Shown: piece after piece, positions 4,581 through 61,604 of the stretch | How positions within the stretch are numbered: the stretch's first letter is position 1 | Layout: the number at the start of each line of letters is the position of its first letter | Assembly (NCBI RefSeq): GCF_056712565.1 | Contig: NZ_CM160072.1 | Length of the DNA stretch: 64,000 bases | Strand: one strand, 5' to 3' | Translations under genes and position numbers: made by a program | Notes under the pieces: generated by a model | Told to the model about the DNA's origin: nothing | The model's database searches: none | The model's input: only the letters and a program-made list of their open reading frames with translations

Positions 4581-4653
4581 GGCGAACTCCTTAACTGATG
4601 TCATTAATTTTACGCCGCTGACTCACAATGACCATGGGAGAAAATTGAAGGAG

Positions 4654-30416: not shown

Positions 30417-30445
30417 CCCGCAAAATATTGCGGGCTTTTTTTTAA
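30417..30445 (+). terminator. Plus-strand rho-independent terminator abutting tailspike stop
   Basis: CCCGCAAAATATTGCGGG followed by CTTTTTTTTT. Confidence 0.4.
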
Positions 30446-33400
30446 CGTTCTTCCAGAGACTGAATCCGCTCTTTTATCTTATCCATTTCTCTGCGCTGCC
30501 ATGCTGCCTCGATATAGAATAAGAGATCAGGTCTGACCCCCCATCTAGATCCTGCTGGCGTTATTTCAACGCGCTCAATGATGTCTTCTATTACCATCAC
30601 TGGATTATCATCCTCATCAACAATGATGCTCCCGTCATTATCAGTCAGCGGCATTTCCCTTTGGCCAGTAATGACGTCATCATATACTGCGGGATAATCG
30701 TCATAGCAAAGAAAGGCATAGCGGCATGTTGTGCTTTCTTCTTCCATGAGTCCGTGAGAAATAAGAACATCACGAAGTTGCTGCGCGATTACACCATGAT
30801 GTATCCTCGCCCCTTCTTCCCCCTTTATAGCGACAGCGTTCAGCCATTTATAAGCGATATACCTGACGTCACCCCAGGCATCCAGCAATGCTTCGTCAGG
30901 AGAGACCGGCTCTGTCTTTAATGTTCCGTCACTGGTAACCACAGGATTGGAGCCAAGATAAACTGTCGAGAACCTGTTTCCCGGACCACCAAGAGCATTT
31001 ACATTATCAAGATAAGGTTTAACATCTCCGTTCTCAAAAAGATGTTCGAGTGCGTTATATACCGCGCGACGTGGAGTACTGCTTCCGGAACCATGCAACG
31101 TTATCATTGCACCATCTGCTGAAGACGTTGTTTCACCTCCGCTAACGATTAATCTCTGAGCGGTAACATCATCAGACGGTACTTTCTTCGCAATAATGGC
31201 GTAATTACCCTCAAGTTTGACTTCCGCGCGAACTTGTCCTGATGTACCTGCATGGACAGTCAGTGACTGGACGGCAACATCATCTGTGAAATCAACGGGT
31301 ACAGGAACCGTCCTCACGCCTGACGTCGACATAAAAGTAGGAAGCGTTCTGTTAGGAGTGGCTCCGTAGACAAAATCCCTTGAAACAAATTCTTCCTGTT
31401 TAATTTTCACCCTGAAACAATACAAATCAGCCGGGTGACCATCGTGAACATAAGGATATTTTCTGTTGTTATCCCCTATGCTCCATGGGTTTAGAAAGTC
31501 TTCCCCACCGAAAATGTAGTACAGCCAGTTGTCTTTGATACAAACTGAACCAACACCAACCGCAGAGTTAACTATTCCGCCCTGATAAATCTGATCAGTA
31601 ACATTAACCCACTCTACATTATCCAGACTCCACTCATTGACGTTAACTCTGGTCATAAATGTTCTTGGATAATTTCCTGCATAACGGTTATCAGGTTCTC
31701 CTCCTTCCCACTCACCAAATGCGCGCTCACTGCCAAAAATAATCAGCTCATCGCCAACTTTGGCAAAAGGAAGGTTTGAGTGATGAACATTATTTGGGAA
31801 GCGAAGAGAATTCCATGATGTACCTAAATCAGAGCTTCTGTGCAATGAACTACCGGGTTGAGTACTTAATGTCCCCCTGGTCGTCAGATACAGAATGCCA
31901 TCATAATATTTTACACATGGCTCAGATGCATTCGCCTCATATTCTGCAGGTATGCGTCTGCGAACAAAGCTACCAGGAGAACCGAAAGCATCAGAGAAAT
32001 AGAGTATCCCAAGCTCGCGTGGACCAATATCACCATTATGGTAGCCAACAGCAAAACTGTTATCGCTAATCGTCGCAAAACTGTGAATCTCAGTAACAGG
32101 AGTGCTTCCGTCAACAAAAGAAGGAATAGTTCCAAGACTGGTTTTTCTCCATGGTGACGAGTGAAATGATGTACCAAAACTCCAGTATCTACCCTCGTTA
32201 TTCTGATCCACATCCTGAGTATTTTGCGTCGTAACTGTAAAAGTATTTTTATCAATAACAGTAGTCACCGTCATATTCCCGGTAACACCTGTAACACCAG
32301 AGTTTGAGAAGTTGACAAAATCACCAGCAAATAATCCGTGATCAGTAATGCGAATATAAGCGACTTGCTGATTTGCTGCTTTCGTTATACCACCATAAAC
32401 GCGAAGGCTGCGACTCATTGGGCGATCCCACAACTCTGCAACCTGCAGTTTATTTCCTCTCACGGTCCGCGTCTCAATTACAGCAAAAAGGCGATTTCTG
32501 ACAACCCCCATACTCATGCAGTGATAGTTAACTGTGGGATAGTTTTCATGTAAATCTGTAAGCCATTCCGGCGTTGTCCAGGTCTTCCCGTCATCTCCTG
32601 AGCGAACCCATGCAACATGGAGGTTATTTACACCATGGCGGTCTCCAGCCATAAAAGGCGCATAGATGACATTGTCATATACAAACGTTTTATCCTGCGT
32701 CCAGGCGTTGTACCACGGTGTATCTGTAATTTTAAATAACTCTCCCTGGATAAAATCTTCAGAAGCATAAAAAAGAGGCTGGCCCGGTATTCTCTCAAAT
32801 AAAAAACGAGCATTTTTAAATCGACTGACATCCGGAAGAGTTGATACTTTAAAAGTAAGCCCTAATCCGTCAATTTTATAACCTGGAGATGAGGCTTCAA
32901 GGCACGCGCTTATTGCAGTGGAATCGTCATTTATACCATCACCAACAGCTCCAAAATCTTTGGGGCTAATAGCATCACGCATTTTATCCTGGAACGTTCG
33001 GTACACAGCCCCAGAACCATACTGAATAAACCAACCAAAACCACCAACAACCCCGGCGATTGCAGCATCGACATAATTACGCATTGAGCGATTATTTACA
33101 GCGTCCTGCTCAAATGATGGATCTGCAAGGTTAGAAATTTTGTTTTGCTTTGCATCGTAATATTTTGCAAGCAAAGATGGTTTCATCAATGCACGTCTGA
33201 ACCACCCAAAACATTGCTGGATCAGCATCGTCAGGTAGTCAAAGGCATCTTCATGCACTTCGGGGAAAAATTTTCCCTGATTGCGAAGGTCTGTCTCCTG
33301 CACTACATCAAGCACACGATCTATCGTAATTCGCCATCCAGTAGCAAGCGGAGACGGAAGAACCACAGAACCGCCACTATAAGTGCCCGCCCCAGTTACC

Positions 33401-33561
33401 GTATAACCGGTATCCAGGACCAATTCTGTTACGTTCCCGTTCAGGTCAGACACCTGAACAACCAGGTCTGATTTTCTGAAAATTCGAAAAGTATACGGAA
33501 ACGATGTCGTAACGCCGTTACCGGTGTATTCGTTGTGGTCAACTTCGGTTGAGACCGTCAT
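30442..33561 (-). CDS. Tailspike protein with Asp-box (BNR) beta-propeller-type central domain
   Basis: 1039 aa; conserved phage tail-fibre N-terminal domain; two SxDxGxTW motifs (SGDDGKTW, SSDLGTSW); RBS GGAG. Confidence 0.8.
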   Translation of the reverse strand: MTVSTEVDHNEYTGNGVTTSFPYTFRIFRKSDLVVQVSDLNGNVTELVLDTGYTVTGAGTYSGGSVVLPSPLATGWRITIDRVLDVVQETDLRNQGKFFPEVHEDAFDYLTMLIQQCFGWFRRALMKPSLLAKYYDAKQNKISNLADPSFEQDAVNNRSMRNYVDAAIAGVVGGFGWFIQYGSGAVYRTFQDKMRDAISPKDFGAVGDGINDDSTAISACLEASSPGYKIDGLGLTFKVSTLPDVSRFKNARFLFERIPGQPLFYASEDFIQGELFKITDTPWYNAWTQDKTFVYDNVIYAPFMAGDRHGVNNLHVAWVRSGDDGKTWTTPEWLTDLHENYPTVNYHCMSMGVVRNRLFAVIETRTVRGNKLQVAELWDRPMSRSLRVYGGITKAANQQVAYIRITDHGLFAGDFVNFSNSGVTGVTGNMTVTTVIDKNTFTVTTQNTQDVDQNNEGRYWSFGTSFHSSPWRKTSLGTIPSFVDGSTPVTEIHSFATISDNSFAVGYHNGDIGPRELGILYFSDAFGSPGSFVRRRIPAEYEANASEPCVKYYDGILYLTTRGTLSTQPGSSLHRSSDLGTSWNSLRFPNNVHHSNLPFAKVGDELIIFGSERAFGEWEGGEPDNRYAGNYPRTFMTRVNVNEWSLDNVEWVNVTDQIYQGGIVNSAVGVGSVCIKDNWLYYIFGGEDFLNPWSIGDNNRKYPYVHDGHPADLYCFRVKIKQEEFVSRDFVYGATPNRTLPTFMSTSGVRTVPVPVDFTDDVAVQSLTVHAGTSGQVRAEVKLEGNYAIIAKKVPSDDVTAQRLIVSGGETTSSADGAMITLHGSGSSTPRRAVYNALEHLFENGDVKPYLDNVNALGGPGNRFSTVYLGSNPVVTSDGTLKTEPVSPDEALLDAWGDVRYIAYKWLNAVAIKGEEGARIHHGVIAQQLRDVLISHGLMEEESTTCRYAFLCYDDYPAVYDDVITGQREMPLTDNDGSIIVDEDDNPVMVIEDIIERVEITPAGSRWGVRPDLLFYIEAAWQRREMDKIKERIQSLEER

Positions 33562-33665
33562 GTTAAATCTCCAGATAGTCGCAGCACCCGTTGCGCCGCA
33601 TATCTGGTTATTCTATTACCTGAAAAACCACATATGGATAAAAGGACTATAAATACCAATAGATA

Positions 33666-33680
33666 TTACCTTTCGGGTAA
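33666..33680. promoter_or_regulatory. Operator-like palindrome TTACC-N5-GGTAA
   Basis: TTACCTTTCGGGTAA; member of a family of 10 perfect sites in the prophage. Confidence 0.45.
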
Positions 33681-33717
33681 TTTGCAAAACGTGCTGGATA
33701 GCAAACAAATTATTTGT

Positions 33718-33737
33718 TACTGTATAAACATACAGTT
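33718..33737. promoter_or_regulatory. LexA (SOS) box
   Basis: TACTGTATAAACATACAGTT = CTGT-N8-ACAG with TA-rich spacer, 20 bp upstream of ATG 33757. Confidence 0.6.
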
Positions 33738-33756
33738 ATTGCATGGAGAAGATAAG

Positions 33757-34014
33757 ATGCAGCAGTATCACTATCCACTGGAAGACGGATTTACCGAAAG
33801 GATTCACACGCCGGGAGGCGTCAGATCACTGGTGGAGGGATCGCTCTTGATGAAATTACTCCGGGATCTCGATAAGGATGGATTTAATGTCGATGGCCCA
33901 CTTGCCGAACTGACTGCACTGATTAACTACGTCACCAGCTCACAGATGTCTATGCGGGATCTGCAAACACATCTCGACTATTGTGCCGAACAATTACGAA
34001 AACAAACCAGATAA
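33757..34014 (+). CDS. Small antirepressor-like protein (85 aa), paralog of the Ant C-terminal domain
   Basis: MQQYHYPLEDGF...; aligns with C-terminus of the BRO-N protein; RBS GGAGAAG; track start 33634 is an extension. Confidence 0.55.
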   Translation: MQQYHYPLEDGFTERIHTPGGVRSLVEGSLLMKLLRDLDKDGFNVDGPLAELTALINYVTSSQMSMRDLQTHLDYCAEQLRKQTR

Positions 34015-34017
34015 GGT

Positions 34018-34046
34018 TTGCAATTACCAAATGGAGTGCTTATATT
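34018..34046 (+). promoter_or_regulatory. Sigma70-like promoter for antirepressor gene
   Basis: TTGCAA, 17-bp spacer, TATATT; abuts operator 34046-34060. Confidence 0.45.
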
Positions 34047-34060
34047 TACCTTTGCGGTAA
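34046..34060. promoter_or_regulatory. Operator-like palindrome TTACC-N5-GGTAA
   Basis: TTACCTTTGCGGTAA overlapping -10/+1 of the antirepressor promoter. Confidence 0.45.
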
Positions 34061-34326
34061 ATTTACATCGCACTCCTCTTGTGCCATAGTAATCGGGCAC
34101 TGGCAAAATCCAGTGCCGGGATTGGCGTCCCGAGTTACTACAGAGGCACATATGCCGCATAAGCGGTTTTTTTATGTGTAAAGCGCACCTATTCTATGGT
34201 GGGCTGTGTGGGGGCACCGAAAGGTGCGCCGGGTCCTTTGTAGCCGGTTACGCCAACCCTGCACAGTTCACCACCAACCGATTGGCGTCGGTAGTGGTGA
34301 TTAACCTAACTACAAAGGTGATCGCC

Positions 34327-35019
34327 ATGAATACCAAACCTTCCATCTTTTCCTTTGAGTCATCCTGCCAGATCCGTATGTTCATGATTGACGGAGAACC
34401 TTGGTTTGTCACCAAAGATGTGTGCAATGCTTTGAATATTGATGTTACACAAGCGAGAAAACTTGATAAAAAAGGCTGGAACAAAAAGGGGCTGTATTCA
34501 ATACAGACCCCTGGTGGAATACAAGAACTATCCATCGTTTCAGAATCAGGTCTCTACATCCTTATTCTGCGTTGCAAAGAGGCAATGACTGAGGGAACGA
34601 GAGCATTCAGATTTCTTGAATGGGTTACAGGCGAAGTACTTCCTCAGATCCGCCGCACCGGAAGCTACATTAAAAACTCGCTCCCGCAGGAAGAACGCAT
34701 AAAGATGGTTGCCGACCAGGTAGCCAACGCCACGGCGTCAGCAGTAATGCAGGCGATGAAGATAGAGAACAAAACCTACAGCGCCCCACTGAAGCCCGGC
34801 TACCGCAGCCTGATTCATTCGCCGTCTGGTGTTCTCGGCCTGACGGAGAACTCACTGCTGATGAATCTGCTGAACCAGTTACAGGAAGACGGGCACGACG
34901 TATCGGGCGCGGCGGCGGAGCTGACCACCATGTTCTGCTACATCGTCGGTGTGAGCAAGTGCCTGCGTGATATCCAGACGCACGCGGAGTACATCAACGA
35001 CAAGGCTGGGTTCTTCTGA
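34327..35019 (+). CDS. Antirepressor, BRO-N N-terminal domain plus Ant-type C-terminal domain
   Basis: GEPWFVTKDVCNALNI...GLYILILRCKEA...EWVTGEVLPQIRRTG BRO-N signature; ATG 34327 with RBS AAGGTG. Confidence 0.75.
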   Translation: MNTKPSIFSFESSCQIRMFMIDGEPWFVTKDVCNALNIDVTQARKLDKKGWNKKGLYSIQTPGGIQELSIVSESGLYILILRCKEAMTEGTRAFRFLEWVTGEVLPQIRRTGSYIKNSLPQEERIKMVADQVANATASAVMQAMKIENKTYSAPLKPGYRSLIHSPSGVLGLTENSLLMNLLNQLQEDGHDVSGAAAELTTMFCYIVGVSKCLRDIQTHAEYINDKAGFF

Positions 35020-35027
35020 CGGGCGGC

Positions 35028-35046
35028 GGCACATGGATGTGCCTTT
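35028..35046 (+). terminator. Candidate terminator after antirepressor gene
   Basis: GGCACAT-gg-ATGTGCC hairpin then TTT. Confidence 0.35.
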
Positions 35047-35085
35047 AAAATAATCATTGGCGATGTGATGTAGATTCGCGTAATA

Positions 35086-35100
35086 TTACCTTACGGGTAA
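35086..35100. promoter_or_regulatory. Operator-like palindrome TTACC-N5-GGTAA
   Basis: TTACCTTACGGGTAA, 60 bp upstream of ATG 35160. Confidence 0.45.
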
Positions 35101-35159
35101 GAAAGCGTTTTTAATCTTCCCTTCAAAACGCGTCCTGTAGCCAAACATGGGAGGACGAA

Positions 35160-35792
35160 ATGAAAACAAATACAACAAGAAAAGCGATGCCATACATTAT
35201 CCCAGAAGCAGATTTCGACAGAAAACTGAACATGTCTGAGAAGAACACTAGTCACACCGAAAGCTACTTAGCGAAAGGTGTGGTTGATTTCGTTCTTCCG
35301 GGATTCACAACACCTTATGGTTATCGCCTTGTAAAATCTTGTAATGGCGATCATTACAGAATGATTACTACCAGCGATACTCCAGAAACGGTGTATGCGG
35401 TTAAGTTAATCTTTCGGGAAGATATCGTCGAAGCTAAAAGAACATGTACGCAGATCATGGTATGGCGTACGCCTAATGTTATTCATGACCGTGCTGTTCA
35501 TGGTTTGCCTCAGATTTTTTTTCAGTTCTTCCTAGAGCAATATGCGATCGTTGTATCTGATGAGCAACAAACAATCGATGGGAGAAGATTCTGGGAAAGA
35601 ATGATTTCTTGGGCTATAAACACCCCGGGATATAATGTATACGTTTCAGATGGCTCTGAAGAAGATAGACCTCTTAGCTTCATGACATCATGGGATGATT
35701 TCTATAGCCAGTGGGCTGATTTCTGTTGGGGCAGTGATAAAGATGTGCATACCCACAGACTACTGGTTATAAGCAAAGATAAACTGCATTAA
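35160..35792 (+). CDS. Hypothetical cytoplasmic protein (210 aa), moron
   Basis: Own operator, RBS GGGAGGA and terminator; Trp-rich C-terminus; no family recognised. Confidence 0.55.
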   Translation: MKTNTTRKAMPYIIPEADFDRKLNMSEKNTSHTESYLAKGVVDFVLPGFTTPYGYRLVKSCNGDHYRMITTSDTPETVYAVKLIFREDIVEAKRTCTQIMVWRTPNVIHDRAVHGLPQIFFQFFLEQYAIVVSDEQQTIDGRRFWERMISWAINTPGYNVYVSDGSEEDRPLSFMTSWDDFYSQWADFCWGSDKDVHTHRLLVISKDKLH

Positions 35793-35796
35793 TAGA

Positions 35797-35818
35797 AGCC
35801 CGCAGCGCGGGCTTTTTT
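35797..35818 (+). terminator. Rho-independent terminator
   Basis: GCCCGC-agc-GCGGGC then TTTTTT. Confidence 0.55.
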
Positions 35819-35890
35819 GTGGACGAAACAAAAGTCAGTGCTACACTCATTGACGCCACATTGAGGTGGCTTATAGATGGAAATTTCACA

Positions 35891-36052
35891 ATGAAAAAAA
35901 CATTTGCTGCACTGTTCGTTTTGTTGTCTCTGGTAGCTTCAACTCAGGCCTTTGCCGGTCGTTGTCAGCACGACAGCGATACTGCTGCTGACGGCTCCCG
36001 CTGCGGTGGGCGTTCTGCGGATTCCCGCCCGGGCGGCGGTGGCATTCGTTAA
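35891..36052 (+). CDS. Candidate small secreted peptide (53 aa)
   Basis: MKKTFAALFVLLSLVASTQAFA signal peptide, then 2-Cys Gly/Arg-rich 31-aa tail; weak RBS. Confidence 0.3.
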   Translation: MKKTFAALFVLLSLVASTQAFAGRCQHDSDTAADGSRCGGRSADSRPGGGGIR

Positions 36053-36058
36053 AAACAA

Positions 36059-36074
36059 GGCCGCGAAAGCGGCC
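36059..36074 (-). terminator. Terminator ending the minus-strand virion operon
   Basis: GGCCGCGAAAGCGGCC hairpin followed on minus strand by TTGTTTTTAA. Confidence 0.5.
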
Positions 36075-36075
36075 T

Positions 36076-36087
36076 GTGACATGTCAC
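36076..36087. repeat. Perfect 12-bp palindrome GTGACATGTCAC (copy 1 of 3)
   Basis: Exact copies at 36076, 53468, 55919. Confidence 0.5.
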
Positions 36088-36088
36088 G

Positions 36089-36649
36089 CTACATTGATAT
36101 ATGATTCATAAAGTAGCTTAAAGATTTACTTCCCAGAAAAGAAATTTCTTTTCCTGGATATGTCGCAATAATTGAGCATGACTTATCCCCGTTAGAGGTA
36201 ACAAATCCTGAATAACCTACTTGTTCTTTACCATTTTGTTGCTTGGCTAAAAAGTAGAGGTAGCTTATCTTTTTGCCCTCTGGGTAAAACTCTGCCAAAC
36301 CAGTATCGGTGATTGAATATTTTATTCTCCCGCCTTGAGTAACGTTTTCCATCTCAAGTTTAGCTATGTCTTTTCTGTTGTATTCAGCATTGATTTTCCT
36401 TTCGAAATCAATGTTGTTTTCAAATGAGTAGGAAGCAACAGTCTGAATAGATGGGAACACGTTTATCTGGATGCCCCCACAGTCGGCACAGGTATAAAGG
36501 TATGAATCAGATGGAATCCCCATAAAAGAAAACTGAGTTACCTTAAATTTATCGCTATCTCCAAAGTATTGAAGTTCGCATTTAACATTTTGCCCTGCAA
36601 AAGAAAATGCAGACATCAATATTGAAACAAAAAATATAATTGCCTTCAT
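36089..36649 (-). CDS. Secreted Cys-containing protein (186 aa), AT-rich moron at end of virion operon
   Basis: Signal peptide MKAIIFFVSILMSAFSFA; ATG 2 nt after stop of upstream gene. Confidence 0.55.
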   Translation of the reverse strand: MKAIIFFVSILMSAFSFAGQNVKCELQYFGDSDKFKVTQFSFMGIPSDSYLYTCADCGGIQINVFPSIQTVASYSFENNIDFERKINAEYNRKDIAKLEMENVTQGGRIKYSITDTGLAEFYPEGKKISYLYFLAKQQNGKEQVGYSGFVTSNGDKSCSIIATYPGKEISFLGSKSLSYFMNHISM

Positions 36650-36651
36650 TA

Positions 36652-39204
36652 TTATTTACCTAGCATGAACTGCGATGGTGGGATCAGAAAGTCGTTCCCC
36701 TGCTCACGCTCAACACGGCGCTGATAACGCTCAAGAGAGCCTGGGTCAAGGGCATCTTGTATCCGGTTCAATATTAAACCATTCATCGCCGTACGAAGCC
36801 AGAACACGTTGAGGAATGGCGTATTGTCAAGTGCCGTGCGATACCAGTCACCCAAATCTGCATCCCCTCTCGTGGTCTGCTGGAGCAGCGTGATAATGCT
36901 GTCAGCGTTCGATGCTGCTGGCCCCATTAGCGACGTAACCGGCCCGGCCCCCATGCGGTTGACCTCACCAAACATGAAGTCACCCAAGATGCCAAGACCG
37001 CCCCCCTGAGATGCGGCTGCGAGAAACGTCTTGGCATCTGCCGGGCGTGGTGTTTGCCCTTTCAGCATGAGTTTTGACTGCATGGAGATATAACCAAACA
37101 TAGTCGCCCAGACAAAGAGGTTTGCAGCACCAAGGAAAGCCCCCTTCCCGTTACGTAGCAGCGCATTCGTCAGCGATCCGGTTTTCGACTCACCAAGCCC
37201 AGCAGGAATATAACCACGCCCGAATACTTCGCGTCCTAGTACGTTCTGCATGAAGCTTGCAGTGAACGATTTGTACTGACCAGCGAATCGTATTGCTTCC
37301 CCAGCCACCGTTCCTGGCACCGTGCCCATCTTCATAAACGCCTGCGTGCGATCGCCAGGCTCTGACATGGCGATATTCAGACGGTCAAGGATGTAGCCGC
37401 GCAACTGCCCTTCCAATTGATCGCGTGCGTCAGCGATAGCGCGCTGCGTTGGTTTGATCCCCTTACTCTCTACATAACCGGCAATCACTTCGTCAGGCAC
37501 GCCGCGGATGCCGCTGGTCGTCATGAACTTACGACCTTCGCTATCGGCCATGTCCATGTTGCGAAAAATTTCCCACTCACGTTCGCCAATACCGTGCAGA
37601 TCCAGCACGCGTCGCAGGTCTTCCGGTAGCCGCGCATGAGACTGGTCAGCATTCTTTGCAAGCCAGTTGGTTATCATCATGGCGTTGCTGTTGCGACCGC
37701 TCTCGGTCCAGAAGTTCATGAGGTTGTACTTAAAGAAAAGCTGCTGCGCGCGACCAAGCTTTCCATTCAGCGTGTCATCACCAGATATGCGCCGGATGAT
37801 TTCCTGCGTCATGGAGTCGGAATAAACTCCGATAGAGGAAAGGATCTCTTTCTGCTCCGCGCTGTTGTAACGCGTGAAGCGGCCTCTCATAGCACCAAGC
37901 AACGCCTGCATAAAATTCTGCCCTTGGTAGCGCATCTCGGTAGCGGCGATAGGCACGTCGTTAAACGATGAGATTACCGCGCCACCAAGTTGGCTCATAC
38001 GCAACCAGCCGCGTACAGCCGCCGACGCATTGGCCCAGCCTACGCTGCCAGGAATATTTAGCGAGCCGTCAACCTGCGGCATTACGGTACGGTTAATGCG
38101 ACGCACCTTCGTCATGTAGTCAGCCAACGCTGCCGGTCTTCCGGATTTGCTGATATCTTCAGCAATGGCGTCCGTCAGGTACTTAAACATGTTCTGTGGG
38201 TTAGTGCCCAGTACGCGCATCATGCCCGTTGTGCGGGCAGCGCTGTTTAAGCCACCAAACAGCGCTTCTCGCAGGCTGCCGGTGCCGAATTGCTGGTTGT
38301 ACTCGTGCCACGAGATACCATCTTTGAAGTGCAAAATTCGCTCTTGGCTGGCGCGTTTAGCTGCGTTCGCCGATCCCTTAAAGCCATTCATCCAATCGGG
38401 CTTTTCAGATGTAAGATGCACGCCGGAAGCCAGCCCGTTATAAATGTTACGCATGAACTGCTCGCGGTCAGCCACGCCGTCAAAAGTGCGCTCATCAAGG
38501 CGCGGGAGAATAGCATTTCGCCATGCTTCATAACCTGCGGCGCGGATCTTCATGATGTCGTGTGACTGGCGCACTATATAGCCCGGCTCTTTGCGTATCC
38601 ATGCCCCGGCGCGGTTCTCATCAATGCGCGCAGTTTCCTGCCATTTCATGATGATTTGTGCAGCGCTTACGGATTGCTTTGTCATACCGTCAGTTGACTG
38701 CCCGCGCCCTATGCGCCACATTGCATCGGCAATTTCCCGGTCATTGCTGCCGCTGGCGATGAATTGCACCAGCCCGGCACGGTCAAAATCGTAGTTGATA
38801 CCGGAATGATACTTGCCGCGCAGTTGCGCCACCTCCGAAGATACCGACCGGCGGGCGCCGGTACGCGCATCGTTGCGGCCAACCAGCATTGCTTCAAGCC
38901 CGATATCCGGGCGGTCTTTCCAGATAGTACGAAGCTCTCTAAGTCGTTGTGCGGCAATACGGGCGTCGATTGCCTTATTGCGAGCCTCAATCTGTTTTGC
39001 CAGCATATCGGCATTGCTCAGTTCTTCCGCTGCGCGCATCGCGGCCTCTTCCAGAGACAGCGCCTCATTGGTCGCCAGAATTCGCCTAGTGGTGTCGTTC
39101 ATGTCACGCACCAGCGACTCCATCTCATCGGAAGAAAGCTCGCGACCAGCGGCAGCATTTACACTGCGCTCGCACTGCGTCAAAAATTCGTTTGCTGCCA
39201 TCAC
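36652..39204 (-). CDS. Large internal virion / DNA-ejection protein (850 aa)
   Basis: Position between tail-tube-like genes and tailspike; overlapping starts/stops with neighbours. Confidence 0.55.
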   Translation of the reverse strand: MMAANEFLTQCERSVNAAAGRELSSDEMESLVRDMNDTTRRILATNEALSLEEAAMRAAEELSNADMLAKQIEARNKAIDARIAAQRLRELRTIWKDRPDIGLEAMLVGRNDARTGARRSVSSEVAQLRGKYHSGINYDFDRAGLVQFIASGSNDREIADAMWRIGRGQSTDGMTKQSVSAAQIIMKWQETARIDENRAGAWIRKEPGYIVRQSHDIMKIRAAGYEAWRNAILPRLDERTFDGVADREQFMRNIYNGLASGVHLTSEKPDWMNGFKGSANAAKRASQERILHFKDGISWHEYNQQFGTGSLREALFGGLNSAARTTGMMRVLGTNPQNMFKYLTDAIAEDISKSGRPAALADYMTKVRRINRTVMPQVDGSLNIPGSVGWANASAAVRGWLRMSQLGGAVISSFNDVPIAATEMRYQGQNFMQALLGAMRGRFTRYNSAEQKEILSSIGVYSDSMTQEIIRRISGDDTLNGKLGRAQQLFFKYNLMNFWTESGRNSNAMMITNWLAKNADQSHARLPEDLRRVLDLHGIGEREWEIFRNMDMADSEGRKFMTTSGIRGVPDEVIAGYVESKGIKPTQRAIADARDQLEGQLRGYILDRLNIAMSEPGDRTQAFMKMGTVPGTVAGEAIRFAGQYKSFTASFMQNVLGREVFGRGYIPAGLGESKTGSLTNALLRNGKGAFLGAANLFVWATMFGYISMQSKLMLKGQTPRPADAKTFLAAASQGGGLGILGDFMFGEVNRMGAGPVTSLMGPAASNADSIITLLQQTTRGDADLGDWYRTALDNTPFLNVFWLRTAMNGLILNRIQDALDPGSLERYQRRVEREQGNDFLIPPSQFMLGK

Positions 39205-40898
39205 ATCCCCCGGTTAATCATACAGGCGGCAAATGCCCGGAAAGCGTTGCTCATGCTATTGTCGCTGGCGTCGGCACGAATATCATTGAGTTTCTGGCGC
39301 AACGTGGTCGCAAGATCAGGGTTATCGACAGCGATATCGTCAAGCAGGGCGTTACTCAGGTTGAGCTCGTTATCAAGGTCTGCAGCGGCAGCGGTAATTT
39401 CATGATCTGCCTTTTGCGTTTCTTGATAAACCCGATCGGCTGTTTCGCTTGCTGGGCGAGCCGTTTCATCAACCTGCCGTGCCGGGTTCTGTATGCGATG
39501 GATGGCGCGTTCACGCAGTGCTGGTTTGTGCAGTTCATAGAAGGGCTCAACATCTGGGCTACGTCCTTCCATCATGTGTGCCAGCGCAGCGCGATACGCC
39601 TGCTGGTTCACGTTCCAGTCAGCATCCCTGATGGCGCTTGCGGCAGTGCGAACTGCGCCAGCGACCGGCGACATCTGCATGCCGTCCAGGATCTGCTGCG
39701 CACGCTCGGAAATGGTGACTTTCAGGTCGTCGGGGATCTCGCCGCGGGAAATCTGAGACTGGCGCCAGCGCGCCTGCTCTGCTGTCGCGTTCTGCTCCAG
39801 CGATGTGTTGATCTCCTGATTGCGTGCAGCGATGGCGTCTTTCTCGGCCTGAATCTCTTTCAGTGCCCTAGAGCGCGCATCCTTAAACTTCATCCGCTGC
39901 CCCTGATACTTTTTGGTGCGCTGCTGCAGCGTCGCATCAAGCGAGTCAGCATGACGTTGATTAGCCGCAAGCTCGGCACGCAGGTCGGCAACGTTACCGA
40001 TCTGCCCGCTCTGTAACTCCTGCTGGCGCGCCATATAGTCAGGAACCACGTCGTCATAAGCCCGGCTGTATGCGTAGCTCTCCGCTTCACTGGAAATGGC
40101 CGCCGCCAGATCTGCGTTAGCGCCAACCTCAGGGATATTCACGCCCGCCGGAATGTTGTCAGGCGTTATCACCGGGGTTGGCTGCGCATCGCCAGAAAAC
40201 GCCGGGGACTCTCCCGTTGCAGCATCGGGAACGCGACGCGGTCGCACGATATCGGCGATAAGGCCGCCGCCGGCATGCATTAGACCGCCAGCCATCGTGT
40301 TAAAGAAAGTACTTTCCAACGCGTTGCTATAGGTGAAGTCGTCACCTTCCGCCGCCGCTGCCAGCCCGGTAAGCGGCACGGTCACCAACGCCTGCGCTGC
40401 CCCCATGCGTGCACCAGCAACAAATCGCTCGCCAAATCGGCCAAGCACAGAAGCCGCCTTTGCTTCTCCAGCGAACGGAACCAGCGCCAGCGCCACGTTA
40501 CCAGGATCTGCCATTGAACCAGCTAGGCTGGCTGCGAAATTAAGCGGCGTGGCTACCCACCCGCTCGGTGCCGACATCGCGATCTGCTGGCGTGCCAGAG
40601 AATCTTTGCGTTCGGCAATAACATGATCGAGAAAAGCCTGCGTAACGCCAGAATCTGGCACGTTTATGCTCTTTACGCCGTACTGCTTCAGGAGCTCATC
40701 CGCTTCCTGCTTACTGATAACTGTAGAGTTTGGGTCATTCGCCAGCGAGTCGGCCTGCGCAAAGCGGTAGCCGGACATGACCGGCCCCTCTTCAAATCCC
40801 TGCTTAAGGGAAGAAAGCAGCGATTCGCCAAGCCCTGCTGGCGCGTTGCCAATTGGCTGGTTAATTCCCTGTCCCGGATCATCTGTGTAAATTGGCAT
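39201..40898 (-). CDS. Internal virion / ejection protein (565 aa)
   Basis: Ala/Gly-rich with coiled-coil C-terminus; coupled to flanking genes. Confidence 0.55.
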   Translation of the reverse strand: MPIYTDDPGQGINQPIGNAPAGLGESLLSSLKQGFEEGPVMSGYRFAQADSLANDPNSTVISKQEADELLKQYGVKSINVPDSGVTQAFLDHVIAERKDSLARQQIAMSAPSGWVATPLNFAASLAGSMADPGNVALALVPFAGEAKAASVLGRFGERFVAGARMGAAQALVTVPLTGLAAAAEGDDFTYSNALESTFFNTMAGGLMHAGGGLIADIVRPRRVPDAATGESPAFSGDAQPTPVITPDNIPAGVNIPEVGANADLAAAISSEAESYAYSRAYDDVVPDYMARQQELQSGQIGNVADLRAELAANQRHADSLDATLQQRTKKYQGQRMKFKDARSRALKEIQAEKDAIAARNQEINTSLEQNATAEQARWRQSQISRGEIPDDLKVTISERAQQILDGMQMSPVAGAVRTAASAIRDADWNVNQQAYRAALAHMMEGRSPDVEPFYELHKPALRERAIHRIQNPARQVDETARPASETADRVYQETQKADHEITAAAADLDNELNLSNALLDDIAVDNPDLATTLRQKLNDIRADASDNSMSNAFRAFAACMINRGM

Positions 40899-40899
40899 G

Positions 40900-43521
40900 T
40901 TATCGTCCTGATTGCTGGCCGTTCTGGAAAATGTTAATCAGGTTGTCGCGCTGACTTTCTGCGCTGTATTCCTTAGACTGTCCGGGAGTATATTTCACCG
41001 GAGTATCAATGAACTTGGTAATGCTGTTCCATACTGATCGGTTGGTTGTTCCCAGTTTCGCCAGATCGTTGAACGGCACCGTAATCGGGTTGCCGTCGGC
41101 ACCGTTGACGATCAGCCCGTTGAGCATCAGGGTAAGTCCTGTTTCGTCGCTGTTGGTAACCCACTGCGCATTATCACGAATGCGGGAGATACTCTGCTCA
41201 CGGTTGACCTCATCAGGTAGCCTTGGGTCACCAATAAGCGGCATAATCTGATCTGCTGACAGGTTTTTCAGATACGCATTGGCACCATCGTTAACGTCAC
41301 GAATATCTATCCCTGCACGCTTAGGTAGCCGCCAAGTGCCATTGGTCTGGTACTGCTCGCCGAGGATGTCCTGATACGCCTGTTTTGCTGCATCAGACGC
41401 CGACATTCCGCGCTGCATGTTGATGTAAGTAAGTCGTTTTCCCTGCTCGTTGAAGTTATTCCACACGGCAGTGCCACCAGGCTGAACAACCATCGTGCAA
41501 GCAAAATCTTTCGATTGGTCATTCCATGACGAGTCGGCGCTATCCGCGTCGGTTTTCTCAAGACTGCCGCGTAAGTCAGCAGTTTTAACGCTACGGTTTT
41601 GCCAGAGCGCATTTGCCGCGCGCGGGTTCTCGGTAGCCATGACAACCTGCAACGCAGGATAAGCGCTCTTCTGAACCTGCTGCATCACCTGATCCGAGTA
41701 TTTGCCGAACGACTGCGCCACCGACTGAATGGCCTTTACGCTAGATTCCTGCGTGTTGTCAATACGCTGCAGTACGTCGTGGACCATGGACTCCGGTAAA
41801 ACTTTTTTGCTCATTATCCCCAGGCGGTCTTTTTCAGACTGTATGCGGGAAACTAGGTATTCACCAGATGAAGGGTCATTCAGGTACTGCTGGAATGCAG
41901 CCTGCACAACCGGAGAGTTTTGTTGCAGCCATGCCCCCGGATCCGCTTCCCGCGCCTTCAGTACCTGCCCAAGCTTGACCTTTGCCGATGCATAAAGCTC
42001 TGCTTTGTATTTAAAGTCAGGGTCGTTTTCCTGCGGTGCCATTGCCTGCACGGCGGCGGTACCCTGCTGGACGTTGCCCTGCATAATGGTCTGATAAACA
42101 GGTTGTAGCGTCATTGCCTGCTGGTATTGCTGGAAGGTTTTTTCCATCTGCAGGCGCTCGGCAGGCGCTGCCTGAAGCGGCATAACGGCGGCCCATTCGT
42201 GCGCTGAAATAGGCGTCACCTGCTTACCGGCCTCAATTTTGGATAGGTCGTCCTGCATTCGACTCTGTAGCGCAACGCGACCGGCTGAAGCCTGCATGTC
42301 GTACATGCCAGCAACCTTGCTCATCATCTGCGACTTTTTGTCCGGACTCATGGCGTTCCAGAATGGCTGTGCGATGAGGTTTTCCATCGTCGCAGATCCA
42401 GGAATAGCTCCAGCACTGCCAGTTACTTTTGCCACATAATTGCGCGTCTCGTCGTATGGGATAGCTGCGGCAAACTGGGCGTTACTGACTTCGCCTGTGC
42501 GCGGATCGCCAATCTGTTTAATCCAGCCGTCAACCTTTCCTGGGCCAGCGTTATAGGCAGCTACTGCCAGAACCGGGTTATTGTCGTATTTCTTCATCTG
42601 CGCGCCGAAATAAGCTTGCCCCAAGCGGGCATTATAGCGCGGGTCATTCAACCATTTATCTCGGTCCCACGGCACGCCAGCAAGGCGGGCAGCTTCGGGG
42701 CCAGTATCTTCCGTCACCTGCGCTACGCCAACAGCGCCTTTTGGCGACACCAGAGGTGTTCCGTCCTTTCCGTACTGATTTCCGCCACTCTCCTGCCAGA
42801 TTATTGCAGAGAATAACTGCGCCTCACTCGGTGTATCGGTTACCTCAATCTTGCCGTTCGGACCCATCATCTGTTGATACATCGGCACATACCACGCCTC
42901 CGCCGCACCGTTCGCGGCATTCTCGCGCCACGAAACCCAGTTCTGTTCGATCTCTTCCTGACTCTGGCCGTGGGCTTCGCCGTAAGCGATGATGCTATGA
43001 TATGCCTTCAATCCTGCCTGGTTTGCCATTGTCGGGTTACGGAACTGCATCGATAGGTTTTTTAGTGTCGCATCCTGCATATCCGCCTCATACTGGCGAA
43101 CCTGTCCTATTTCGTACCTCCCGGCCTGCGTAGCGAACTGAATACGCTGCTGCTGCGCCTGCTGCATGAAAGCATTACGAGCCTGTTCATCCGGCAGCGA
43201 CATAGCCAGTTGTTCGATCTGAGCATCAAACTGCTGTGTATACTCATGGCCTTTTCCAATAGCATTTTTCCCTTTCAGGTTAAGCAATCCTGTTTCAGGA
43301 TTATTCAGCAGATCGCTGCTTATCTGACTGAGGTTAAGAGATGCCTCCTGAGCCAGAGCGATATTGGCACGCTGTTTTGCCTGCCCCAAAACATCAATTG
43401 CCTCTGTCCCTGCCCGAACAAAAGCATCACCAATACCTGGCTGAGAAAACGTCTGCAAGCCTGCTGACTGAACTCCACGACTCTCAACCTGACGTCCGGA
43501 TACTGTTGGTACGACTGGCAT
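40900..43521 (-). CDS. Internal virion protein with lytic transglycosylase (SLT) domain
   Basis: WQESGGNQ...AYNAGPG motifs; start ATG 43521 with RBS GGAGG overlapping upstream stop. Confidence 0.7.
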   Translation of the reverse strand: MPVVPTVSGRQVESRGVQSAGLQTFSQPGIGDAFVRAGTEAIDVLGQAKQRANIALAQEASLNLSQISSDLLNNPETGLLNLKGKNAIGKGHEYTQQFDAQIEQLAMSLPDEQARNAFMQQAQQQRIQFATQAGRYEIGQVRQYEADMQDATLKNLSMQFRNPTMANQAGLKAYHSIIAYGEAHGQSQEEIEQNWVSWRENAANGAAEAWYVPMYQQMMGPNGKIEVTDTPSEAQLFSAIIWQESGGNQYGKDGTPLVSPKGAVGVAQVTEDTGPEAARLAGVPWDRDKWLNDPRYNARLGQAYFGAQMKKYDNNPVLAVAAYNAGPGKVDGWIKQIGDPRTGEVSNAQFAAAIPYDETRNYVAKVTGSAGAIPGSATMENLIAQPFWNAMSPDKKSQMMSKVAGMYDMQASAGRVALQSRMQDDLSKIEAGKQVTPISAHEWAAVMPLQAAPAERLQMEKTFQQYQQAMTLQPVYQTIMQGNVQQGTAAVQAMAPQENDPDFKYKAELYASAKVKLGQVLKAREADPGAWLQQNSPVVQAAFQQYLNDPSSGEYLVSRIQSEKDRLGIMSKKVLPESMVHDVLQRIDNTQESSVKAIQSVAQSFGKYSDQVMQQVQKSAYPALQVVMATENPRAANALWQNRSVKTADLRGSLEKTDADSADSSWNDQSKDFACTMVVQPGGTAVWNNFNEQGKRLTYINMQRGMSASDAAKQAYQDILGEQYQTNGTWRLPKRAGIDIRDVNDGANAYLKNLSADQIMPLIGDPRLPDEVNREQSISRIRDNAQWVTNSDETGLTLMLNGLIVNGADGNPITVPFNDLAKLGTTNRSVWNSITKFIDTPVKYTPGQSKEYSAESQRDNLINIFQNGQQSGR

Positions 43522-44066
43522 TATAATCCTCCGGGTAATCTGGTTCCTGCTGCTGCCCCGATTGGCGCAGGAGTGCTTTGAGTAAACGGACTCCACGTCC
43601 CACCAAACATCTGGTACGCACCGTATGCCTTCAGAGGCGCAGTGAGCAATGTTGTTGCTGCTCCCACATTCCCCTGTTTACGGGCTGAACTGGCTTCTGC
43701 TTTATAGTTGGCAGCCTGAACCTGATAACCGTAAGCCTCGCGTTGCGCGTTATTCACCGTCGTCAGAGAATCAAGAGCGCCAAACTGGGCAGTGTCGCCA
43801 AATATATCCAGCGCGTTACCTGTAGATAAATCAGCGCCGGTAGCCCCCATTGTCGCCGCCTGTGTACCAAGCCGCTGTCGGGTCTCTCTGCGCCGTTGCT
43901 CAGCTTCAGCGTTACCTCTGTTTATTGCATCATTTGCCTGAGCTGTGGCTATATCTGCGTTCGCTTCTGCAACCTTCGAGGCATACTTTCCCTGTTGGTA
44001 CTGGGTGTATGCCTGAATGCCACTCATGGCGAGCATTGCGCCACCAGCAATAACCGGATCGCACAT
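43521..44066 (-). CDS. Virion structural protein (181 aa)
   Basis: In-operon ORF with coupled start. Confidence 0.5.
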   Translation of the reverse strand: MCDPVIAGGAMLAMSGIQAYTQYQQGKYASKVAEANADIATAQANDAINRGNAEAEQRRRETRQRLGTQAATMGATGADLSTGNALDIFGDTAQFGALDSLTTVNNAQREAYGYQVQAANYKAEASSARKQGNVGAATTLLTAPLKAYGAYQMFGGTWSPFTQSTPAPIGAAAGTRLPGGL

Positions 44067-52458: not shown

Positions 52459-52495
52459 TTGACATTTAACGCGTTAATTATTACCTTTCAGGTAA
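52459..52495. promoter_or_regulatory. TTGACA -35-like hexamer plus operator-like palindrome (52481-52495)
   Basis: TTGACA at 52459-52464; TTACCTTTCAGGTAA at 52481-52495. Confidence 0.4.
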
Positions 52496-52816: not shown

Positions 52817-52893
52817 GTGGCATTAGCTCAGTTGGACAGAGCAACCGCCTTCTAAGCGGTTGGTCGCAGGTTCGAATCCTGCATGCCACGCCA
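52817..52893 (+). tRNA. Phage-encoded tRNA-Arg, anticodon UCU
   Basis: Cloverleaf by hand: acceptor GTGGCAT/ATGCCAC, D-arm GCTC/GAGC, anticodon stem ACCGC/GCGGT, loop CTTCTAA, T-arm GCAGG-TTCGAAT-CCTGC, CCA end. Confidence 0.85.
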
Positions 52894-60634: not shown

Positions 60635-60865
60635 TCATGAGTAGAAGAAGTATGCCAGTTCTGCTTTTGAGCGCAGCCATTGTCTTGTTTTACAGGCTTT
60701 AAAAAGCCCATTCATCAATACTTTACCTGGCATTTTTCGCTTACCTGTTAAGTGAGTCTGGATATAGTGACTCGTCGTTCCGGCTTCCTGTGCGAAGGCT
60801 TCACGCTCATCCGGAGTAAGTGCAAGCCAGTGCTTTTTGAAATCGAAATGTCCGTTATCGCTCAT
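60635..60865 (-). CDS. Cro-like HTH regulator (76 aa)
   Basis: Divergent from cI-like gene across the operator cluster; HTH LTPDEREAFAQEAGTTSHYIQ. Confidence 0.55.
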   Translation of the reverse strand: MSDNGHFDFKKHWLALTPDEREAFAQEAGTTSHYIQTHLTGKRKMPGKVLMNGLFKACKTRQWLRSKAELAYFFYS

Positions 60866-61019: not shown

Positions 61020-61604
61020 ATGAAAAGTATCCAGGACGTCCGCAGGCAAAATCTCAACGACTTGATCGACCGTGAATTCAATGGTGTTCAGACGCGGATG
61101 GCAGAAAAACTTGGAACTCAGGCAAATCTGGTAAACCGCTGGGCTCTTGGCAAGAAGGTTATCGGCGACCAGGTTGCGCGAAAAATTGAAGCTGCCGCCA
61201 ATAAACCCCGTAACTGGCTTGATATCGATCGCTCGCTTTCTCAGGAAGGTTTTCAGCCTGTCGGCCCAAGCGACATTGGTCAGCTGGCGGCTCACAACCT
61301 GGAACGCTGGATGAGCGAAAGCCGCGACCTTTCAACACAGGGAAAACTTCACCGCGCATCCGGCGTCGCCCAGGTGACAATCAGCCGCCTGTTAAACAAT
61401 GAGGTCAGCGTTTCCATTTCCACCCTGGAGAATGTTGCATCCGCATTCGGGCGTCACGGCTATGAATTACTGATTCACCCGCACGACCCTGCGACTATCA
61501 ACTATGACCGCTCGCGCTACGCATTGTTACCCGAAACAGAGAAGGCAAAGATCGAAAGTTACATTGAATTTGTCATCAGCCAGAACGAAAAAAACAAACA
61601 ATAA
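61020..61604 (+). CDS. CI-like repressor, HTH type, no recognisable LexA-type autocleavage domain
   Basis: 194 aa, two HTH-like segments, no Ala-Gly/Ser-Lys S24 motifs; followed by terminator. Confidence 0.65.
   Translation: MKSIQDVRRQNLNDLIDREFNGVQTRMAEKLGTQANLVNRWALGKKVIGDQVARKIEAAANKPRNWLDIDRSLSQEGFQPVGPSDIGQLAAHNLERWMSESRDLSTQGKLHRASGVAQVTISRLLNNEVSVSISTLENVASAFGRHGYELLIHPHDPATINYDRSRYALLPETEKAKIESYIEFVISQNEKNKQ

Follow-up and report, generated by a model that had tools for sequence, protein, structure and literature searches.

What do the three small genes between the ejection genes and the tailspike gene of a prophage do, and do they belong together? The locus covers positions 35086-36649 of a 64,000-nucleotide stretch of DNA (contig NZ_CM160072.1 of assembly GCF_056712565.1), which we call the window. 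An earlier description made from the letters alone, here the sequence-only reading, saw one moron cluster of three AT-rich, individually punctuated genes without a recognised family, with candidate functions in lysogenic conversion, superinfection exclusion or defence. The three open reading frames (ORFs), coding for 210, 53 and 186 amino acids (aa), are present in the ORF listing at the coordinates given there. They are real genes, and the region does serve as accessory space, with the ejection (internal virion) genes on one side and the tailspike on the other. In our reading, to which we assign a probability of about 55%, the three products have different roles: the 210-aa protein would be a lytic-cycle cargo protein with a GNAT fold, the 53-aa product an exported disulfide-loop peptide, and the 186-aa product a late periplasmic protein that acts at an envelope step.

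The three genes are separate, unrelated units that are inherited independently. Among 5426 complete E. coli genomes, the 210-aa gene is found in 92, the 186-aa gene in 55 and the segment with the 53-aa gene in about 421-537. Because these counts differ, and because only eight of the genomes retain 80% or more of the 3.2-kb stretch 33500-36700, the genes assort independently; with the 186-aa gene fixed in the late operon, the idea of a single moron cluster does not agree with these findings. The composition also varies. The 210-aa gene (40.8% GC) and the 186-aa gene (35.7%) are AT-rich, as had been claimed, compared with 50.2% for the whole window and 55-58% for the adjacent virion genes, but the 53-aa gene is not (56.8%). 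That no family can be recognised is true of Pfam and NCBIfam, where scans gave no family match for any of the three proteins, and of PADLOC 2.0, where none matched at E<=0.1, but all three proteins have been placed in PHROG families whose function is unknown. The signal peptides and cysteine counts agree with the earlier description.

Two transcription units converge at the locus, an induction/accessory unit on the + strand and the late ejection-protein operon on the - strand. The + strand unit would consist of a LexA-boxed gene similar to epsilon15 gp19, the antirepressor gene ant under the control of a C4 RNA, a cargo slot and the small peptide gene. The 210-aa gene (35160-35792, + strand, PHROG 1349) is interchangeable cargo in this slot, which is framed by a putative operator and a backbone terminator. 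By pairwise comparison, the left breakpoint lies at ~35056-35100 and the right one exactly at 35796. At least three types of cargo use the slot, namely the 210-aa gene, a pair made up of PHROG 10654 and the DUF2335 membrane protein PHROG 3996, and a pair made up of PHROG 6685 and the YafO-like PHROG 1651. At this site TL-2011b and EC.W1-9 have different cargo, and in phiV10 the slot is empty. The 210-aa gene shows the presence/absence pattern of a moron, with 92 genomes against the about 421-537 that have the backbone segment bearing the 53-aa gene. Compared with PADLOC, the alternative cargo gave only a marginal LeoBC match (0.0021).

The right border of the slot is an intrinsic terminator (35794-35819, + strand), formed by the hairpin GAAGCCCGC-AGC-GCGGGCUUU (35796-35814) and a U run. 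It folds with -15.3 kcal/mol (z -3.4) and was also detected as an inverted repeat. The hairpin and all sequence downstream of it are identical in TL-2011b and EC.W1-9, where they directly follow unrelated genes, and since they are identical in phages with other cargo the terminator is an element of the backbone. The left border (35057-35100, + strand) has a promoter-like site, TTGGCG, 18 nt and TAATAT, followed by the putative operator TTACCTTACGGGTAA (35086-35100). A -10-like hexamer and then this palindrome are found upstream of every cargo type, and the palindrome is conserved before the differing cargo of TL-2011b, EC.W1-9 and LLS. The 210-aa gene had been credited with an operator and a terminator of its own. 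An operator-like sequence is present, as one of ten exact palindrome copies spread over the prophage, but the terminator belongs to the backbone. Since the operator and the terminator at its two ends stay the same, the slot could place unrelated cargo under a common regulation.

The palindrome, TTACC-N5-GGTAA, has ten exact copies of 15 nt, starting at 33666, 34046, 35086, 52481, 55640, 58557, 58619, 60950, 61662 and 61724. All of them are in the prophage part of the window and none in its 28-kb host part; the extended consensus is aTTACCt-N3-aGGTAAt. When one mismatch is allowed there are 16 sites, where 1.1 are expected, and none of 100 shuffles reaches 16. Many copies directly follow -10-like hexamers, including all three in the accessory unit: the one at 33666 is upstream of the gp19-like gene, the one at 34046 of ant and the one at 35086 of the 210-aa gene. 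Other copies, arranged in pairs, bracket the gene of a 194-aa helix-turn-helix (HTH) regulator (61020-61604) and flank a divergent Cro-like gene (60635-60865) that adjoins the replication genes. Because the copies bracket these two genes and are restricted to the prophage, we infer that the palindrome copies probably serve the prophage repressor system as its operators, and the prophage repressor is the candidate for the protein that binds them. Since the palindrome before the 210-aa gene is the one common to the immunity region, the gene is predicted to be silent in the lysogen and would probably be switched on at infection or induction. Such silence, which the sequence-only reading had named as counting against it, is what the palindrome predicts. 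Should the operator be correctly assigned, expression of the cargo would follow induction rather than lysogeny, and other phenotypes have to be looked for. In the literature, we found no paper that describes TTACC-N5-GGTAA as an operator.

In the lambdoid phage LLS, an 84% identical homolog of the 210-aa gene (42140-42772) lies after the lysis genes, with the palindrome at 42053-42067. Here promoter, operator and ORF seem to have moved as one cassette.

The 210-aa protein is cytoplasmic and models as a distant GNAT-like fold. In the predicted structure the elements are ordered alpha1-alpha2, beta2-beta4, alpha3, beta5, alpha4, beta6, in agreement with the GNAT superfamily, and a Foldseek search returns uncharacterised family members first and then NAT_SF/GNAT proteins. 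The structure prediction that had been proposed as a check was thus informative for this protein. The family, which is large and uncharacterised and now has a fold assignment, comprises 63 clusters at 90% identity, nearly all ~210 aa long, and 917 representative clusters (50% identity) at E<=1e-3, nearly all ~200 aa long; one homolog is the one in LLS, for which E. coli K-12 is a host. Two blocks are conserved, TQxxVWR and SDxxQTxxGxxFW. At pairwise identities of 22-30%, W102 never varies, and conservation reaches 90% or more at N29, Y79, D134 and W145.

In sequence, no GNAT model matches the protein: Pfam gave no match with the query, nor with 48 members of the family, and the NCBIfam and PDB sequence-profile searches gave no match either (in PDB at chance level only). 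The coenzyme A (CoA) binding loop also appears not to be canonical. For motif A, Q/R-x-x-G-x-G/A between beta4 and alpha3, two candidates can be found by eye, R103...G115-x-P/A117 with an insertion of ~9 residues, and T138-x-x-G141-x-R143 within the SDxxQTxxGxxFW block, both non-canonical.

GNAT proteins are known from other phages, AcrVA5 being one of them. Further examples are Mom of phage Mu (PMC13219725, PMC7261163) and Rac of phiKMV (PMC7552054). Homology to Mom was rejected, as hhalign of the family profile against Mom gave a probability of 0.2% over 7 columns. The two are alike in being solitary, sequence-divergent accessory genes of temperate phages, without profile similarity, and Mom is a precedent for a solitary divergent phage GNAT with an unusual donor, which is not necessarily acetyl-CoA (PMC13219725).

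From the modelled fold, the 210-aa protein is most likely a solitary acyl-transferring enzyme used in lytic development. The lysogen would not express it; production would begin with infection or induction, and the protein would then serve the lytic cycle, by host takeover or counter-defence, rather than lysogenic conversion. The genomic contexts of its homologs bear on this. The wide family alignment has no sufficiently conserved stretch for a locus search, and alignment A1 was used. Across 54 loci in at least eight genomic contexts, no conserved partner gene and no antitoxin-like neighbour cluster was found. The gene occurs in podovirus-, siphovirus- and myovirus-type prophages and in a plasmid-like prophage: after Ant in podovirus types, between a gpK-like gene and the adjacent Arc/Ant module in siphovirus types, before the baseplate genes in a myovirus type, between the tail chaperone and tape-measure genes, alone on the opposite strand in a ParA-bearing prophage, and after the lysis genes in LLS. 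Homologs are often, but not always, located beside Arc/Ant modules. Distant members are encoded by the 227-kb jumbo Burkholderia phage BCSR5 and by Agrobacterium phage Atu_ph07; two others, P0171 and P0220, lie on short contigs that reveal no gene neighbourhood.

These contexts could also be taken to mean that the protein is GNAT-like in fold without being an enzyme, i.e. a binding protein, for instance an accessory to the antirepressor circuit. In phages of several unrelated types the gene has an Ant or Arc module beside it, a canonical CoA pyrophosphate loop seems to be absent and no Pfam GNAT model matches. However, we consider a binding protein unlikely: N29, Y79, W102, D134 and W145 are conserved at 22-30% identity as expected of an active site, no Ant is near the gene in the myovirus baseplate operon, in the plasmid-like prophage or at the LLS genome end, and distant members exist in BCSR5 and Atu_ph07. 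It is very unlikely that the protein is a GNAT toxin of the TacT/AtaT type, which would acetylate aminoacyl-tRNA and act as a repressor-silenced abortive-infection effector or addiction factor. The fold class would allow it, and the slot is also used by the YafO-like toxin pair, but none of the 54 loci has an antitoxin-like partner, no Pfam or NCBIfam model of a GNAT toxin matches, and LLS is a viable phage that carries a homolog.

As a separate observation, in the myovirus-type prophages (L047-L050, L054) the homolog adjoins a small gene of cluster c47 (L054 4466-4876). Its product starts with a signal-peptide-like hydrophobic stretch, MKKLILMIACSSFALAGVAHA..., and both genes are inserted before the baseplate genes.

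The 186-aa gene (36089-36649, - strand, PHROG 11983) has a different history. As judged from its position and distribution, it is a lineage-fixed late gene and not a mobile moron. It is the last gene of the ejection-protein operon, i.e. at the end of the virion operon as had been stated, and its upstream neighbour is the gene of the 850-aa internal virion (ejection) protein (36652-39204, - strand, PHROG 684). The individual punctuation claimed for the three genes fails in this case. Its ATG follows the stop codon of the 850-aa gene at a distance of 2 nt, the 186-aa gene has no 5' element of its own, and the only terminator is that of the operon, which is shared. It is a GC-rich hairpin (36058-36075) common to the converging units. 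On the - strand UUGUUUUUA follows, forming the late-operon terminator, and on the + strand there is no U run. The hairpin folds with -14.3 and -15.7 kcal/mol and was called by the terminator scan. Since the 186-aa gene starts only 2 nt past the last ejection-protein gene, translational coupling to the 850-aa gene is suggested.

The arrangement is the same in E. coli, Hafnia, Salmonella and Klebsiella, with the 186-aa gene 2-3 nt after a gene of 848-850 aa. In the last three genera the 848-aa gene is preceded by the genes of a 568-570-aa protein and of an SLT-domain protein, and in Klebsiella the tailspike gene comes directly after the 186-aa gene. Its GC content is 35-37% in the four genera compared with 52-58% for the neighbours, and the protein is 66-92% identical among them compared with 85-89% for the neighbouring protein. 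The 55 E. coli genomes with the gene compare with 62 that have this variant of the virion genes. The presence/absence pattern of a moron is therefore not seen; within its structural lineage the gene is a fixed component. A search of 50,697 phage records gave no match to it.

The protein has a signal peptide, MKAIIFFVSILMSAFSFA, followed by G at the putative cleavage site, and four invariant cysteines including C54-x-x-C57 (17 clusters). The signal peptide and the invariant cysteines with their CxxC indicate a periplasmic protein. It would be made late, be exported to the periplasm and act where the phage crosses the envelope, for instance as an exclusion factor against like phages. We favour this step because the ejection module, and not the receptor-binding tailspike, is what the gene is co-inherited with, and an envelope-crossing role is what we infer as most likely.

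Two leads from sequence searches were dropped. A match to T5 Llp (8a60_B, E 0.037) vanished with a profile of the mature protein only, and the sequence FSFA/GQ has no lipobox. A resemblance to NlpE ('CADCxGI' by eye; NCBIfam E 0.033, residues 1-65 of the precursor) also failed, as the mature sequence has no match at E<=10. Pfam was negative for all 14 members of the family.

Could the 186-aa protein instead be a virion or assembly component of the ejection apparatus? Its strict adjacency to the ejection-protein genes in four genera would fit such a role. Yet an N-terminus like a cleavable Sec signal peptide and four invariant cysteines point to the periplasm, whereas capsids assemble in the cytoplasm, and a GC content of 35-37% is unlike that of structural genes. 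About 7 of the 62 genomes with this ejection module seem to be without the gene, and in a related Cronobacter module a 66-aa ORF replaces it. We therefore regard a structural role as highly improbable and keep to a periplasmic protein acting at the envelope.

The 53-aa precursor (35891-36052, + strand, PHROG 14503) is encoded within a 77-aa ORF that starts with GTG. Its signal peptide ends in AFA/G, and the mature peptide of 31 aa has a C25-C38 loop and a Gly-rich tail; for this product, as for the 186-aa protein, cleavage of the signal peptide is presumed. The homologs form 55 clusters and carry the NCBI name 'transmembrane anchored protein'; we found no paper in the literature on a 'transmembrane anchored protein' in a prophage. 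The signal peptide is variable, and the core C(Q/N)HDSDTAADGSRCGGRSADSRPG is invariant. Comparing E. coli, Klebsiella, Cronobacter and Pectobacterium, the 24 core codons have 11-15 synonymous differences against 0-1 nonsynonymous ones, so that the core is under extreme purifying selection, and despite this the gene is hidden in annotation under its present name. It keeps its place in Klebsiella and Cronobacter prophages, where it converges on the end of the ejection operon; in a minimal Cronobacter arrangement it directly follows the gp19-like gene. Upstream is a promoter-like site, TTGACG, 16 nt and TATAGA, without the final T, and in the window no copy of the TTACC-N5-GGTAA palindrome precedes the gene, so that its expression may not depend on the repressor.

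The gene would make a Sec-exported 31-residue peptide with a disulfide loop, and its near-invariance across genera would imply a conserved target in the envelope or a metal. By eye, the core HDSDTAADGSRC is similar to an acidic D-x-D...D-G-x-x-C loop that a disulfide closes, and this loop looks like a calcium-binding site. The Excalibur calcium-binding domain (PF05901) was considered and dropped; there is no Pfam match at E<=10, the spacing is D-x-D-x3-D-G and not DxDxDG, and the loop of 12 residues is far shorter than the domain. No other model matched the loop either.

If the absence of the palindrome before the 53-aa gene is given more weight, all three genes may be classical morons expressed in the lysogen, for lysogenic conversion, superinfection exclusion or anti-phage defence. 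This would also agree with the AT-richness of the 210-aa and 186-aa genes, with the promoter-like and terminator elements at the 210-aa gene, with the YafO-like toxin pair in the same slot of relatives, and with a position after the ejection genes, the place of sieA in P22. We nevertheless consider expression in the lysogen unlikely for the set as a whole. The palindrome of the immunity region overlaps the expected transcript start of the 210-aa gene, the 186-aa gene has no 5' punctuation and stands at the end of a late operon, no PADLOC match was obtained and the genes assort independently.

Several observations weigh against our own reading of a lytic-cycle cargo protein, an exported peptide and a late periplasmic protein. 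The -35 and -10 hexamers before the 210-aa gene match the consensus at 8 of 12 positions and the scanner made no call there. In LLS the palindrome occurs only upstream of the 210-aa homolog, and in an 83%-identical lineage it is degenerate, so that repressor control may not be universal. The AlphaFold2 (AF2) model of the 186-aa protein, built from 14 sequences, is unusable, with a predicted local distance difference test (pLDDT) score of 43; for this protein the proposed structure check brought nothing. Finally, the PADLOC negative carries no information on counter-defence.

How much of this is new compared with known systems? A prophage accessory region is a known kind of locus. In P22, the immI/sieA accessory region lies between ejection gene 16 and tailspike gene 9. 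The present region has the same place on the map, between the last ejection-protein gene and the tailspike, and both have an antirepressor module and small envelope proteins, with a content that varies between close relatives. The differences are an epsilon15/phiV10-like backbone, an Ant that would be under a P1-type C4 RNA and a putative repressor operator instead of Mnt/Arc, and a cargo slot framed by a fixed operator and a fixed terminator, unlike P22 and moron hot spots. The 186-aa and 53-aa products resemble T4 Sp, T4 Imm, T5 Llp and P22 SieA in being small exported phage proteins, and by this analogy superinfection exclusion is a reasonable candidate role for both. That the 186-aa gene travels with the ejection module is what would be expected of a protein that blocks the entry of like phages. 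Compared with T5 Llp, it has no sequence relationship and no promoter of its own, and is probably late.

A bolder version would make PHROG 1349 a family of undescribed GNAT-fold enzymes for takeover or counter-defence, the 186-aa protein a new exclusion factor and the 53-aa peptide an envelope effector; that all of this holds jointly is doubtful. If true, PHROG 1349 would be switched on at infection or induction in temperate phages of all tail types and in at least one jumbo phage, acylating a host target, and the 186-aa protein would be a periplasmic exclusion factor aimed at the SLT-bearing ejection apparatus with which its gene is co-inherited. New functions in defence, counter-defence and host modification are repeatedly discovered in prophage accessory slots. 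Particular to this case are the slot framed by operator and terminator, the GNAT-like PHROG 1349, the constrained small peptide and the lineage-fixed late protein, probably periplasmic; these are leads, with functions unproven.

Directly before the slot lies the gene of the Bro-N antirepressor Ant (34327-35019, + strand, PHROG 130), 99.6% identical to the gene of EC.W1-9. A related Bro-N antirepressor ('Ant'-type PHROG), ~39% identical to the one of phiV10, has been demonstrated to work in phage ZX5 (PMC9782041). Rfam places RNA elements in the ant leader (34084-34278, + strand): an IsrK-like small RNA (34097-34173; 74.2 bits, gathering 50), a C4 antisense RNA (34192-34278; 79.5 bits, gathering 45) and the a1/b1 target sites of C4 (44.3 bits, just below the gathering value of 46.7). 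Because the leader at this place holds these elements, a 281-aa ORF starting at 34174 is an over-extension of ant. By its Rfam matches the leader is of the P1-type immI control.

Further upstream on the + strand are a putative operator (33666-33680), a canonical LexA box TACTGTATAAACATACAGTT (33718-33737) and the 85-aa ORF similar to epsilon15 gp19 (33757-34014), which is homologous to the C-terminal part of Ant. A similar LexA box is found in a Cronobacter prophage (L019, ~4631-4652). These features suggest that the 85-aa product is a small antirepressor under SOS control, and, taken as a whole, the + strand unit has the look of an induction module that is linked to SOS and ends in a cargo slot.

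By its DNA matches, which are to phiV10, TL-2011b, EC.W1-9, ZX5 and epsilon15-type phages, the prophage is epsilon15/phiV10-like. An initial guess that it was P22-like or CUS-3-like was dropped, as the DNA matches point to the epsilon15/phiV10 type. The annotated relatives have a common scaffold that reads, in the orientation of the window, tailspike (-), the 85-aa gp19-like gene (+), the Bro-N antirepressor (+), variable genes and then the converging end of the large virion-protein operon (-). The genes bcp, gcvR, ppx and yfgF in the host flank place the prophage near guaA, the vicinity of which is the attachment region reported for phage ZX5 (PMC9782041).

The tailspike (30442-33561, - strand, 1039 aa) has an N-terminus of the epsilon15/phiV10 type, and RefSeq annotates an endosialidase catalytic beta-propeller domain in the matching gene. 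Because of this domain the K1 capsule appears to be the target of the prophage. APEC (avian pathogenic E. coli) O18, ST95 and O7:K1 strains are among the best genome matches. The ejection module (36652-43596, - strand), with genes of 850, 565 and 898 aa, has no close relative among the 50,697 phage records, and its best match, at 49% protein identity, is to Stenotrophomonas and Pseudomonas Ab31-type phages. In the part of the prophage near the tailspike, identity to phiV10-type phages is 93-98%. With a divergent ejection module and a tailspike-proximal part close to the phiV10 type, the prophage is therefore a mosaic. Finally, a tRNA-Arg gene (anticodon TCT) is located inside the prophage at 52817-52893, near the palindrome copy at 52481.

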